Part shown: positions 50,922 through 55,684 of the stretch, one piece after another
How positions within the stretch are numbered: position 1 is the stretch's first letter
Layout of the letters: the number at the start of each line of letters is the position of its first letter
Sequence record: PZ386959.1
Strand: one strand, 5' to 3'
Length of the DNA stretch: 64,000 nt
Source of the DNA: a phage
Made by a program: the position numbers and the translations under genes
Notes under the pieces: model-generated
Database searches by the model: none
The model's input: the letters and a program-made list of their open reading frames with translations, nothing else
What the model was told of the DNA's origin: nothing

Positions 50922-51407
50922 ATGAATTACATGGAGATTCGACCATTTGACACAGCTAATGGTGAAGGGGTTCGTGTAAGCCTCTTCGTAGCTGGTTGTA
51001 AGCATCACTGTGAAGGCTGCTTTAACAGGGAGTCTTGGAAGTTTAATGCTGGTAAAGTGTTTACTTATGCAAACCTCTACGGCATCATTAAATTAATGGA
51101 TGATGAGGCCATCAGTGGGTTGTCAATACTTGGTGGAGAGCCTCTGGATGATAGAAATATTCAAGAGGTTACCAACATATGCAAACGTATTAAAACAGTT
51201 TACCCAGAGAAGTCTATATGGCTCTGGACAGGTTTTCAACTACACGAAAAAATTCACTTAGATGTGATGAAATATGTTGACGTGGTGATTGATGGTAAGT
51301 ATGATTCATCTAAACCAACAGTCAAACCTTATCGTGGTTCTGATAACCAAAACCTCTGGAGAAAAGAGTATGGGTGGCAAGGTGATTGTCAATGGCGAGC
51401 AGAATAA
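50922..51407 (+). CDS. nrdG: anaerobic RNR activating protein (radical SAM)
   Basis: Radical-SAM cluster motif CKHHCEGC (Cx3Cx2C) near the N-terminus; 161 aa. Confidence 0.8.
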   Translation: MNYMEIRPFDTANGEGVRVSLFVAGCKHHCEGCFNRESWKFNAGKVFTYANLYGIIKLMDDEAISGLSILGGEPLDDRNIQEVTNICKRIKTVYPEKSIWLWTGFQLHEKIHLDVMKYVDVVIDGKYDSSKPTVKPYRGSDNQNLWRKEYGWQGDCQWRAE

Positions 51408-51748: not shown

Positions 51749-52069
51749 ATGAGCAAAGTTTATAACACTCGTAAATTACAGATTTTCGTACTGTGCCAGT
51801 TTATGGCTAAAGAGCATAACTACTACTATTGTGGTACAGGATTCATTAGTGATAATGACGGCTCATATCTACCATTCAAAGAGGCTGTAAAGCTCTTCAA
51901 TGAAGAGAAAAGCTCTAAGAAAGATATTGAAAAGGTTAAGCTAACCTACAGCAAGAAAGACAAGAAGATTATCTGCCTAGATAACTTTGTAAAAGTTACT
52001 GGAGAAGCAAAAGAGTTTATGGATGAGAGTGAGATTTCATTCACAAGCATCTTGAAAGTAGCTCAGTAA
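51749..52069 (+). CDS. hypothetical protein
   Basis: 106-aa ORF followed by a terminator. Confidence 0.3.
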   Translation: MSKVYNTRKLQIFVLCQFMAKEHNYYYCGTGFISDNDGSYLPFKEAVKLFNEEKSSKKDIEKVKLTYSKKDKKIICLDNFVKVTGEAKEFMDESEISFTSILKVAQ

Positions 52070-52082
52070 AAAGATACTATAA

Positions 52083-52108
52083 GGGGACTGTAAAGGTTCC
52101 CTTTTTAT
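52083..52108 (+). terminator. rho-independent terminator
   Basis: Stem GGGGAC / GTTCCC with loop TGTAAAG, followed by TTTTTATTTTT. Confidence 0.55.
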
Positions 52109-52123
52109 TTTTGTGGAGATACT

Positions 52124-52639
52124 ATGTACCTGTCAAACCTGAAACGTTCTGCTGCAATATCTGTTCTGAGACTAAGCTTTGAAGAGCGTCAAGAGTTCAT
52201 TGATTCTCACCAATATGACCCTTCCAATTCCAATCACATGATTCTCTGGAACCGTGATAACTTCCGTGAAAGAGCACTTGTCCGTTATTACCCACACTAC
52301 ACAATAGATAACCTGTATGAATGGTGTGTTGTGAAGAACACTATTGCAACACTTAACAATCTTTGCAGGTATACAGGCAAGCAAACATTTACACTAGGTC
52401 ACCACAAGCCTGTTACAAAAGGTGGTGAACATCACTGTGCAAACTGGTTTATCCAAACTAAAGCTGATAACCAGAAGCAAGGAGATAGACTCCTAAGCAT
52501 CCCTAAGATGACCTATGAAGAGCAAGAGAGATATATCAAAAATAATATGCCAGATGTGCTTGACAACAACTATACAGATTTGGCAATATCTCTCCTGTTG
52601 AAGTTCGAGACAGTTTATAGGGCAACTTACAATGGCTAA
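52124..52639 (+). CDS. HNH endonuclease-like protein
   Basis: Segment LGHHKPVTKGGEHHCANWFIQTKADNQKQG fits the HNH (His-Me finger) pattern H-H...N...H/N. Confidence 0.5.
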   Translation: MYLSNLKRSAAISVLRLSFEERQEFIDSHQYDPSNSNHMILWNRDNFRERALVRYYPHYTIDNLYEWCVVKNTIATLNNLCRYTGKQTFTLGHHKPVTKGGEHHCANWFIQTKADNQKQGDRLLSIPKMTYEEQERYIKNNMPDVLDNNYTDLAISLLLKFETVYRATYNG

Positions 52640-52910
52640 AGAGAAGTGGGAAATTTTACCATTAGTGAGTGAAGGCGGTAACGGTTGTGAGATGTACATG
52701 ATACGTGGTCATGTACCAGAACCAATTGCACTTGAGATGGTAAACAATTTTACAGATGGCTCTTACAAAGATTTAGGAGAGCCAACTATAAAGCATCAAT
52801 GGGTCAAACCTGTACCAGACAGCACAGGTAACTGTAGTGTACTTTATCACGTTGTAGACCCTGCAAAATGCAAATCTGCAATGGCAGTAACAAACGTAAC
52901 TTTTGATTGA
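52632..52910 (+). CDS. hypothetical protein
   Basis: 92-aa ORF overlapping both neighbours. Confidence 0.3.
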   Translation: MAKEKWEILPLVSEGGNGCEMYMIRGHVPEPIALEMVNNFTDGSYKDLGEPTIKHQWVKPVPDSTGNCSVLYHVVDPAKCKSAMAVTNVTFD

Positions 52911-53803
52911 GAGAGAAAACTATGAAAACTGTTATTGAAGTCGTTGTCACCGCACAAGAGAAATTCTTCCACACAGAAAAATTTAATATCATCCAATTCC
53001 CATCTGGAGAAATTGGTGGAAACTTCTCTGAAGAATTTGTTAAGTTTACTGAGCGTAATGCTGGTAAGATTGACAATGTTATACTTACTGTGCAGGGATA
53101 TGATAAAGATACTCTGTTTGCATTAGCTTTGGCTAAGGATGCCGTTGACAGTCTTGTTCCATATAAGTCAGCGATGAAAACCGTTGTTTTCGGGTTCTTA
53201 CCAAATGCTCGGTATGACCGCCATATGTTCAAAGGTGATTCAGCAGCACTGAAAGCTTTTGCCAACCTCGTTAATGCAATGGGTTTTGATGCAGTATGTG
53301 CTCTTGACCCTCACAGTAATGTTGCAGAAAACTTATTTAAGTGCTTTCAGAGCATGAAGCAAAAAGATGTAGCAGTACACTTTGCAAGTGACCCACGCAT
53401 TGATTTCTTGGTAGCCCCAGATGCAGGCGCAGCTAAGAAGACTGAAGAGGCTGCTAAAGAGGTGGATAAACCATATATCACAATGTCTAAAGTGCGCAAT
53501 CTTAAGACTGGAGAAATCACTGGTATGCGAATCCTTGACGATGTTGATTTGACCGATAAAACTGTCATGATTCTCGATGATATCTGTGATGGTGGTCGAA
53601 CCTTCATAGAGGCAGCTAAACATCTTCGTGAAGCAGGTGCAAAACGTGTGGAACTCTATGTAACTCATGGCATTTTCTCTAAAGGGGTTGAAAACTTACT
53701 TGACAATGGTATTGACCATATCTACACTACAAACTCTTTAGGAGAAGCTAAAGACCGTGGCTTAACACATTATGCCCAAGTTACTGTAATTACCATTGAT
53801 TGA
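52907..53803 (+). CDS. ribose-phosphate pyrophosphokinase (Prs) family protein
   Basis: Matches Prs blocks: FGFLPNARYDRH (cf. FGYARQDR), LDPHSN (cf. DLHA), and the PRPP-binding loop VMILDDICDGGRTFIEAAKHLREAGAKRVELYVTHGIFS (cf. VLVDDMIDTGGT...THPIFSG). Confidence 0.8.
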   Translation: MREKTMKTVIEVVVTAQEKFFHTEKFNIIQFPSGEIGGNFSEEFVKFTERNAGKIDNVILTVQGYDKDTLFALALAKDAVDSLVPYKSAMKTVVFGFLPNARYDRHMFKGDSAALKAFANLVNAMGFDAVCALDPHSNVAENLFKCFQSMKQKDVAVHFASDPRIDFLVAPDAGAAKKTEEAAKEVDKPYITMSKVRNLKTGEITGMRILDDVDLTDKTVMILDDICDGGRTFIEAAKHLREAGAKRVELYVTHGIFSKGVENLLDNGIDHIYTTNSLGEAKDRGLTHYAQVTVITID

Positions 53804-53849
53804 AACTTTATAGGGGCTTCAAAGCCCCATTTTGAGAGAGATTAAAAAG

Positions 53850-55631
53850 ATGACTAAATCACTTTATGCAGTACCAGCAGGTTTAAACGCAGATGCTTAC
53901 AAATCTGGTCACATTTACCAGTACCCTAGTGCAACAGAGTACTTGATGTTTAACCTGACACCACGTAGTGACAAATGGTTTAACAGTCCCTTAGCAATTG
54001 ATGGTGTGGTTGCTTTTGGTATTCAACGTTTTGTTAAAGATTACTTGATAGACCACTGGAACGCCACCTTCTTTGAACGTGACAAAAAAGAAGCAATTGA
54101 CGAAATCTTAGAAGTCATGAACGGTGTTCTGGGTAAAGATGCTATTGGTCGAGAACATTGGGAAGCACTCCATGACTTAGGTTATCTTCCAGTTGAAGTA
54201 TACGCTGTAGAAGAAGGCACAGTTGTCCCTATGCGTGTACCAATGATTGTCTTCCAGAACACTGTCTCAGGTTTCCATTGGGTAGCGGGGTATCTGGAAG
54301 ATGCTTTCTCTGCTGAGATTTGGAAGGCTTGTACCATTGCAACTATTGCATTGCACTACAAACGTATTTGTAAGAAGTGGTCTGACCTTACTTGTGACAA
54401 TGACTTACATTTGCCTTATCAGTGCCATGACTTTGCTATGCGTGGTATGTCTGGCTTTACTGATGACGCATTTAATGCTGTAGGTCACTTAACCAGCTTT
54501 AAAGGGACTGATAGCTTCCCTGCTGTATACACGGCTAAACGCATCTATGGGCAGTCCTACCCAATCTCTGATATTGGTAGTTCTGTACCAGCCACTGAAC
54601 ACTCTGTAATGTGTGCAAACATTGCTTGGGAAGGTGGTAATGAGTTGATTGAAGAAGAAAGACGCTTTAAAGGTGAGTTACAAACCTTCCGTCGTTTCTT
54701 AACAGAAACTTACCCAACTGGTATTGCAAGTGTTGTTTCAGATACTTATAACTTCTGGAGAACTGTATCAGTTATATTACCAGAACTTCGTAAAGAGATT
54801 ATGGAACGTGATGGTAAACTGGTAATTCGCCCTGACTCTGGAGACCCTGTACATATTGTCACAGGTTATAAAGCAATCCACTTAGAATGTGCTAAGAAGG
54901 CTTATTACGAGCACCTAAGCAAGCTGGAAGCTAGTGACACAATGTTGAATGCTGTTCTGAACATGAAGCTTGAAAACATCAACTATGGCATTGCTGGATG
55001 GCTACTGTCAGAAGGATACGAAATGGTTGTTGACAGAGAAGACTTTGAAGTTGCTGATACAGTGATGTTGAAAAATGCTTATATGGTTGGTTCTGCAAAC
55101 GTTGTAACACGTCCTGTAGCTGAGATTGATGGAGCTATTAAGACACTGTACAACATCTTTGGTGGAGCTATTAACTCTAAAGGGTTTAAGGTACTGGATG
55201 AGCATATCGGCCTTATCTATGGTGACTCTATCACTCTGGAACGTGCAAACGAAATCCTGAAGCGTCTGTATGAAATGGGTTTTGCAAGCTCTAACGTAGT
55301 GTTTGGTGTAGGCTCTTACACTTACCAGTACATGACTCGTGACACCTTTGCATTTGCTGTCAAAGCAACTCTTGCAAGCATTGGTGGTAAAGAGATTATG
55401 CTTGCAAAAGACCCTAAAACAGATAGTGGTGTTAAGAAATCTGCCTTTGGTGGTGTAGCACCTATGTGGGATGGTGATAAGCTGAAAGCTGTAGATGGCT
55501 ATGGATTCCAGAGTTTTGCAGATGTACTTGACCACCCAGCTTGTGCTTTACGTTTAGTCTTTAGTGACTCTGAGCAGTTTGGTTACACAACTCTTGGTGA
55601 TATTCGAAATAATATTGACAAGCAGCTTTAA
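53850..55631 (+). CDS. nadV: nicotinamide phosphoribosyltransferase (NadV/NAMPT) family protein
   Basis: N-terminal ADAYKSGHIYQYP matches the NAMPT TDSYKVTHYKQYP signature; about 593 aa; start set at the ATG (MTKSLY) rather than the upstream TTG used by the track. Confidence 0.8.
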   Translation: MTKSLYAVPAGLNADAYKSGHIYQYPSATEYLMFNLTPRSDKWFNSPLAIDGVVAFGIQRFVKDYLIDHWNATFFERDKKEAIDEILEVMNGVLGKDAIGREHWEALHDLGYLPVEVYAVEEGTVVPMRVPMIVFQNTVSGFHWVAGYLEDAFSAEIWKACTIATIALHYKRICKKWSDLTCDNDLHLPYQCHDFAMRGMSGFTDDAFNAVGHLTSFKGTDSFPAVYTAKRIYGQSYPISDIGSSVPATEHSVMCANIAWEGGNELIEEERRFKGELQTFRRFLTETYPTGIASVVSDTYNFWRTVSVILPELRKEIMERDGKLVIRPDSGDPVHIVTGYKAIHLECAKKAYYEHLSKLEASDTMLNAVLNMKLENINYGIAGWLLSEGYEMVVDREDFEVADTVMLKNAYMVGSANVVTRPVAEIDGAIKTLYNIFGGAINSKGFKVLDEHIGLIYGDSITLERANEILKRLYEMGFASSNVVFGVGSYTYQYMTRDTFAFAVKATLASIGGKEIMLAKDPKTDSGVKKSAFGGVAPMWDGDKLKAVDGYGFQSFADVLDHPACALRLVFSDSEQFGYTTLGDIRNNIDKQL

Positions 55632-55644
55632 AAGTATATGATAA

Positions 55645-55670
55645 GAGGCTCCTACGGGAGCCTTTTTAAT
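55645..55670 (+). terminator. rho-independent terminator after nadV
   Basis: Stem AGGCTCC / GGAGCCT with loop TACG, followed by TTTTTAATTT. Confidence 0.65.
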
Positions 55671-55684
55671 TTCTGGAGAAGACT

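Follow-up and report, generated by a model that had tools for sequence, protein, structure and literature searches.

What are two adjacent phage genes doing when one resembles a ribose-phosphate pyrophosphokinase (Prs) and the other a nicotinamide phosphoribosyltransferase (Nampt, or NadV), and can their sequences tell nicotinamide salvage from the rebuilding of nicotinamide adenine dinucleotide (NAD+) after a host defense has consumed it? The question arises at the + strand genes lying between 52922 and 55631 of a 64,000-nucleotide (nt) stretch of phage DNA, sequence record PZ386959.1, which as a whole we call the window. A preliminary description had pointed to a Prs-like gene next to a NadV-like gene, and this pair is borne out by the + strand open reading frames (ORFs) and by family matches far beyond chance. 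It also offered the NAD+ reconstitution pathway 1 (NARP1) type of pathway as a candidate, rightly so given how near the two proteins are to Bas63_0079 (96% identity) and Bas63_0080 (98%) of Escherichia phage Bas63. We part from it on the statement that sequence alone cannot distinguish NARP1 from salvage, because the near-identity to the Bas63 operon, together with the adenine-clamp motif of the second protein, does separate the two and favors reconstitution. We hold with high confidence that the pair is a plain two-gene NARP1 counter-defense operon of Felixounavirus, made up of adps, encoding a Prs-like ADP-ribose pyrophosphokinase of 293 amino acids (aa; 52922..53803, +), and namat, encoding a Nampt-like nicotinamide ADP-ribose transferase of 593 aa (53850..55631, +). 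The NARP1 system of the window is thus already known, being the orthologue of a published, structurally characterized operon.

In the proposed mechanism, a host defense NADase of the SIR2, TIR, or SEFIR type would split NAD+ into ADP-ribose (ADPR) and nicotinamide. Adps would take the beta,gamma-pyrophosphate from ATP and attach it to the terminal ribose of ADPR, forming ADPR-PP, and Namat would join nicotinamide to ADPR-PP, displacing pyrophosphate and giving NAD+ directly, without passing through nicotinamide mononucleotide (NMN), host NadR, or PncC. The rival reading is classical salvage dependent on phosphoribosyl pyrophosphate (PRPP), in which a true Prs makes PRPP, a true Nampt makes NMN, and host NadR/PncC routes lead on to NAD+. 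Bas63 genes 79-80 are the operon with which NARP1 was discovered, its definition resting on a phage deletion, on measured NAD+, and on metabolomics (bioRxiv 10.1101/2024.02.11.579819), and Bas63 lacking these genes forms ~20-fold fewer plaques on SIR2-HerA, with a deeper NAD+ depletion (Osterman et al., bioRxiv 10.1101/2024.02.11.579819). The same work speaks against salvage, in that Bas63 counter-defense is independent of pncC and nadR, and the operon-dependent metabolite is ADPR-PP and not one of the NMN route, being seen only when wild-type Bas63 and the defense system are both present (bioRxiv 10.1101/2024.02.11.579819). Further, purified SPbetaL1 Adps converts ADPR and ATP to ADPR-PP but gives no measurable product in a Prs-activity assay, its authors concluding that it is not a Prs, and SPbetaL1 Namat makes NAD+ from ADPR-PP and nicotinamide (bioRxiv 10.1101/2024.02.11.579819). 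A namat gene adjoins 97% of Adps-clade proteins, and the pathway is found in 859 phage genomes; it defeats type I Thoeris, DSR1, DSR2, and SEFIR, and type II Thoeris, which does not act as an NADase, is not overcome (bioRxiv 10.1101/2024.02.11.579819). The Adps and Namat of the window phage would be expected to act like the Bas63 copies.

The window is a Felixounavirus genome. Megablast with the locus matched 259 phage records, most of them bearing the names of Escherichia, Salmonella, Shigella, or Citrobacter phages, with the top matches 96% identical in DNA. The four fetched records (AYO145A, VpaE1, Bas63, and the locus neighbors) are all placed in the Ounavirinae, in the genus Felixounavirus. 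Escherichia phage JohannRWettstein (Bas63, MZ501086) and the window are collinear, offset by ~176 bases at the NARP1 locus. Close relatives of this locus are carried by 253 phage records in the collection, and NARP1 is universal in the phage lineage of the window.

The first protein matches the Pfam families Pribosyltran (3.3e-12) and Pribosyl_synth (2e-09), TIGR01251 ribP_PPkin (3.8e-39, 134 bits), and PHROG 619, named ribose-phosphate pyrophosphokinase (1.1e-98). These Pfam, NCBIfam, and PHROG names, and the annotations of >200 related phage records, as of most GenBank records, are what salvage has in its favor at this point. The scores tell against it, since Adps reaches 98-112 bits with the bona fide Prs models NF002095 and NF002320, far below their cut-offs of 296-297 (for NF002095, 112 versus 296). 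By BLASTP it aligns with Bas63_0079 ungapped at 280/293 identities (96%), and it is 36% identical to ICP1 Adps, which has been validated biochemically (117 bits), 34% to SPbetaL1 Adps (96 bits), and 27% to E. coli Prs (64 bits). On these comparisons the window protein belongs with the phage Adps clade and not with the cellular Prs clade; Bas63 Adps served as the query for the published Adps/Prs tree (bioRxiv 10.1101/2024.02.11.579819). A search of the Protein Data Bank (PDB), in a copy without the solved Adps structures, gave ordinary PRPS as best matches.

To map residues, the window proteins were aligned with those of the SPbetaL1 and ICP1 systems, the latter taken from the genome record, and with E. 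coli prs. Residues K190, R97, H131, D167, D219, D220, and D223 of Adps align with ICP1 K185, R87, H121, D161, D212, D213, and D216, and the ICP1 residues equivalent to these have been tested by mutagenesis (PMC13586617). The lysine of the catalytic beta-hairpin, K190 here (codon 53489-53491, +), corresponds to K185 in ICP1 and K162 in SPbetaL1. K190 and the acceptor residues are also kept in Prs, and therefore indicate activity and not which substrate is used. The PRPP-type loop quoted in the preliminary description is found in this protein as the PP loop DDICDGGRTF (53576-53605, +), which reads DDICDGAASF in ICP1, with DDICDG common to both. The C-terminus is shorter than in E. coli Prs, 293 versus 315 aa, with a C-terminal gap in the alignment; loss of the C-terminal alpha11-alpha12 filament/regulatory module of Prs has been described for Adps (PMC13586617).

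The second protein has the Pfam NAPRTase match (1.3e-33), NF006629 (4.4e-139, 464 bits), and PHROG 448 (3.5e-200), and contains the motif DAYKSGHIYQYP, as had been reported for it. It aligns with Bas63_0080 by BLASTP at 583/593 identities (98%), again ungapped. Its closest solved relatives are 9w5w/9w5x, the SPbetaL1 Namat (phmmer 8.6e-128). An AlphaFold2 model built with 47 homologues, with a predicted local distance difference test (pLDDT) score of 93.7, was submitted to Foldseek, which returns the Namat structures 9w5x and 9w5w first (template modeling score 0.95 on the target), then HdNadV, and then mammalian NAMPT. The Nampt-like core, consisting of the Asp/Tyr from the partner protomer, the Phe and Arg of HDF.xRG, the Asp of GTD, the catalytic His, and the Arg/Asp of RPDSG, is all present, with D15, Y17, F195, R198, D221, H251, R327, and D329 aligned to SPbetaL1 D13, Y15, F189, R192, D215, H245, R306, and D308. 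The motif PATEHS contains the catalytic His251 and IRPDSGDP contains R327/D329, both within 53850..55631 (+).

What distinguishes a Namat is an adenine "selectivity clamp" that includes a motif of the type GS[YF]TYQY.TRD (PMC12774641). The clamp is required for use of ADPR-PP and dispensable for use of PRPP (PMC12774641). The helix part is present here as GSYTYQYMTRD, residues 488-498 (55311-55343, +), with Met at the phi3 position where Asn or Val is usual. The nearest true Nampts of solved structure have GAQTYQRNTRD (HdNadV of Haemophilus ducreyi) and GGALLQKVDRD (Xanthomonas), in which both aromatic residues are missing. The clamp loop between beta1 and beta2 carries Arg, Lys, or Tyr as its third residue and, where that is Lys or Tyr, a fourth residue that stacks (PMC12774641). 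The window protein, with TPRSDKW at 53958-53978 (+), has S40-D41-K42-W43, identical to Bas63 and of the Lys configuration followed by a stacking residue; the stacking of W43 is predicted from an AlphaFold3 model of Bas63 Namat (PMC12774641). A clamp motif of the form GS[YF]TYQYNTRD also occurs in ~496-aa chromosomal proteins of Klebsiella, Cronobacter, Kosakonia, Phytobacter, and Erwinia, annotated as nicotinate phosphoribosyltransferase and 46-48% identical to the phage Namat. They may be bacterial or prophage copies of NARP1, of the sort reported for Paenibacillus.

An intact adenine clamp in the window Namat is thus a further point against salvage. On the other side, the SPbetaL1 Namat retains the ability to form NMN from PRPP in vitro (PMC12774641), because of which the pair may keep some residual classical activity, and the pair sits among genes of nucleotide metabolism (NrdAB, NrdDG). 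Taking the Bas63 metabolite and host-gene results, the SPbetaL1 assay, the Prs model scores, and the clamp together, we regard classical salvage as a very improbable account of the pair. The neighborhood itself can be described as follows. The pair is the end of a long nucleotide-metabolism block of aerobic and anaerobic ribonucleotide reductases and glutaredoxin, in which NrdG lies upstream of the pair at 50922-51407, and NrdD, NrdA, and NrdB are placed further upstream by collinearity with Bas63. In Bas63 the NrdD gene is interrupted by a homing endonuclease.

Several points do weigh against reading the pair as NARP1. The Bas63 proteins were never purified, the protein having been one that "did not purify well" (bioRxiv 10.1101/2024.02.11.579819), and because of this the substrate specificity in Felixounavirus rests on in vivo metabolomics and on homologues that are 30-46% identical. 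It is those homologues, from SPbetaL1 and ICP1, to which the in vitro enzymology and the structures belong, and a preference for ADPR-PP over PRPP is known for SPbetaL1 Namat alone (bioRxiv 10.1101/2024.02.11.579819; PMC12774641). The Bas63 deletion took out both genes together (bioRxiv 10.1101/2024.02.11.579819). What the window itself shows is the genes and their residues, and the phenotype and enzymology that we would ascribe to its phage are transferred from these relatives. Within Adps, the adenine-stacking F18 of ICP1 falls in a gap, the N-terminal stretch being unaligned, and the adenine-stacking F92 aligns with M102, next to F103. The PP loop of SPbetaL1 Adps is different again, DDLSSFGGTF. 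By its alignments, then, Adps is a protein without a sharp sequence signature. A clean signature separating Adps from Prs was considered and rejected, as the catalytic Lys and acceptor Asp residues are common to Prs, the stacking Phe residues of ICP1 have no clear counterpart, and PP loops vary among validated Adps. As far as the comparisons go, membership in Adps rests on the clade, on the pairing and synteny with Namat, and on the near-identity to Bas63.

If the pair is NARP1, is it the plain form? Other phages have variants, namely NARP2, in which a Nampt and an NMN adenylyltransferase work from PRPP, and extended NARP1, which is either NARP1-AP with an ADPR-1''-phosphate phosphatase or a form with the RyDEP cyclic ADPR (cADPR) glycosidase. 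The occurrence of such variants elsewhere, and the presence upstream of 171-aa and 92-aa genes of unassigned function that are probably co-transcribed with the pair, give some room for one of them here. The 4 upstream and 3 downstream genes were examined with Pfam and PHROGs, and no Macro, RyR, or nucleotidyltransferase family is found among them. Specifically, there is neither a Macro-domain ADPR-1P phosphatase (Adpp) nor a RyR-domain cADPR glycosidase in those neighbors or between adps and namat, and no NMN adenylyltransferase either in the neighbors or in the Bas63 annotation. No product of any of these kinds is annotated in the collinear Bas63 genome, and the Adps partner that is present is not needed by NARP2. 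As no accessory domain appears among the neighbors or in the Bas63 annotation, we conclude that this is the plain two-gene NARP1, and we regard NARP2 or an extended NARP1 as very improbable. NARP3, which consists of PnuC and a NadR-like enzyme, was set aside as unrelated, neither component being found among the neighbors or in the Bas63 annotation.

One part of Namat goes beyond the studied enzymes. Residues 340-428 (54867..55133, +) are an 89-residue insertion that the AlphaFold2 model predicts to fold confidently as a small alpha/beta subdomain, and that is missing from SPbetaL1 Namat, ICP1 Namat, and Nampt. A second, smaller insertion relative to the SPbetaL1 and ICP1 Namat proteins covers ~15 aa at residues 258-272. 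The 89-residue insertion turns up in 254 phage records, which are essentially the operon carriers themselves; at E < 1e-3 no further phage group has it, so that it is confined to Ounavirinae. The site where it occurs is a length-variable hotspot across the family, with 17 to 97 residues. No solved structure matches the subdomain significantly, and in the Namat structure paper (PMC12774641) the word "insertion" is absent and the 89-residue feature is not discussed. It is conceivable, but we think unlikely, that the subdomain adds a function missing from the SPbetaL1 and ICP1 enzymes, such as docking of Adps to channel ADPR-PP, or regulation or oligomerization. SPbetaL1 Namat, which is without the insertion, shows no stable binding of Adps. 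ADPR-PP, the intermediate proposed to be channeled, is prone to hydrolysis. This Ounavirinae-only subdomain is the only mildly new point of the locus.

The gene boundaries given above differ from a mechanical ORF call, which places ORF 1 at 52907..53803 (+, 298 aa from TTG) and ORF 2 at 53832..55631 (+, 599 aa from TTG). These TTG codons, at 52907 and 53832, are the first start-type codons following the preceding stop, and each sits within a TTGAGAGAGA motif, 15-18 nt 5' of an in-frame ATG. It is because of this decamer, present at 52907-52916 ahead of the adps ATG and at 53832-53841 ahead of the namat ATG, that the ORF finder assigns TTG starts to both genes. The TTGAGAGAGA decamer resembles a ribosome-binding motif and probably gives both genes a common context for ribosome binding or translation initiation. 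The true starts are almost certainly the ATG at 52922, for 293 aa, and the ATG at 53850, for 593 aa; these are preferred because they are used in the Bas63 annotation, 27 close homologues are 593 aa long, and the N-terminal MTK of Namat is common to SPbetaL1. Of the 298-aa protein in the preliminary description, the reading frame from TTG 52907 does exist, while the length has to be corrected to 293 aa. Its separation of 28 nt between the genes does not hold either, the ATG starts making the adps-namat spacer 46 nt.

That spacer, 53804-53849, contains the hairpin GGGGCTTCAAAGCCCC, GGGGCT-TCAA-AGCCCC followed by ATTTTG, at 53813-53828 (+), and the folding of the spacer has -12.6 kcal/mol and z = -2.7. 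A terminator scan makes no call at this hairpin, with only 4 T found 3' of the stem, because of which calling it weak, as had been done, is fair. In phage AYO145A the corresponding position carries a terminator annotation. The hairpin in the window probably either terminates transcription weakly or partially or serves as an RNA-stability element. The strong terminator that had been placed after the second gene is likewise there, as an intrinsic terminator ending the unit at 55643..55671 (+), with a stem at 55643-55666 of 10 bp, AAGAGGCTCC/GGGAGCCTTT, of which 5 pairs are G-C, a TAC-containing loop, and a T run (-17.7 kcal/mol, z = -3.1). In the Felixounavirus VpaE1, and in Arno162 and SB18, more distant phages that carry Namat, an HNH endonuclease gene (~164 aa, PF13392) separates adps from namat, whereas the window and Bas63 have the 46-nt hairpin spacer alone at that place. 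In the relatives these endonuclease genes lie at 1215-1706 of record L010, 4497-4991 of L012, and 4493-4990 of L013, and an HNH endonuclease is listed for several other Felixounavirus records under the match. From these comparisons the adps-namat spacer seems to be a place where homing endonucleases insert, occupied in some members of the subfamily and empty in others.

Upstream of adps are the two genes of unassigned function, encoding a 171-aa protein (52124-52639, +; PHROG 3500, with a weak HNH-like stretch) and a 92-aa protein (52632-52910, +; PHROG 4726). Neither has a Pfam family above its cut-off. They overlap by 8 nt, and the gap from the 92-aa gene to the adps ATG is 11 nt. The terminator scan finds a terminator-like hairpin at 52081-52103, 5' of the 171-aa gene. 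Because the two genes are tightly packed between this hairpin and adps, the transcription unit may hold four genes and not two, and from this arrangement they probably share a transcript with adps-namat. In Arno162 and SB18 the 171-aa gene is in the same place, at 39-43% identity, with Adps there 39-45% identical, and it does not adjoin NARP1 in SPbetaL1, ICP1, or the metagenomic contig L014. No sigma-70 promoter for the pair is found between the 52081-52103 hairpin and adps. The sole candidate near the 5' side of adps is a 9/12 sigma-70-like match, TTGAAA-17-TACTAT, at 52052-52080, abutting that hairpin. At the downstream end, an 11/12 match, TTGACA-16-TATGAT, at 55615-55642, abuts the terminator stem at 55643-55666, and phage AYO145A has a promoter annotated at the corresponding site. 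Both ends of the block therefore have a sigma-70-like promoter match directly against a terminator hairpin. A transcript begun at either one would start within the hairpin and so would escape termination.

NARP1 matters because it lets phages evade the NAD+-depleting defenses SIR2-HerA, DSR1/2, type I Thoeris, and SEFIR, and it bears on the selection and engineering of therapeutic phages. The locus is another copy, in a Felixounavirus, of the founding operon and leaves the picture of NARP1 unchanged. What it does call for is care with names, since databases usually label the pair ribose-phosphate pyrophosphokinase and nicotinamide phosphoribosyltransferase. These names mislead, and the pair should be read as Adps and Namat.

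It remains to set the pair beside the systems to which it is related. The bona fide Prs enzymes (E. coli prs, human PRPS1) have the same fold as Adps and carry out an ATP pyrophosphoryl transfer to the ribose C1 hydroxyl; E. coli Prs differs from the window Adps in the 27% identity and the longer C-terminus mentioned above, and the window protein is below the NF002095/NF002320 cut-offs. Nampt/NadV (human NAMPT, Xanthomonas Nampt, Haemophilus ducreyi NadV) likewise shares the fold of Namat and attaches nicotinamide to a ribosyl pyrophosphate. Nampt genes are normally without a paired Prs-like gene (bioRxiv 10.1101/2024.02.11.579819). The NARP1 systems of SPbetaL1 and ICP1, like that of the window, consist of two neighboring genes, adps first and namat second, with the catalytic residues kept, and all three have in common the GS[YF]TYQY.TRD of Namat, the catalytic-loop lysine of Adps, and the DD..D acceptor residues. 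The window is ~30-36% identical to these two in Adps and ~46% in Namat. It differs from them in the clamp loop, which has Lys-Trp in the window and Arg in SPbetaL1/ICP1, and in SPbetaL1 adps and namat abut, where the window has its 46-nt spacer with a hairpin. Closest by far is the NARP1 of Bas63 (bas63_0079 Adps and bas63_0080 Namat, MZ501086), which has the same genus-level backbone, the same gene order and lengths of 293 and 593 aa, and the same intergenic hairpin region, Namat clamp residues, and 89-residue insertion. The two systems are separated by 13 substitutions in Adps and 10 in Namat, with 0 of these at residues implicated in catalysis or adenine binding.

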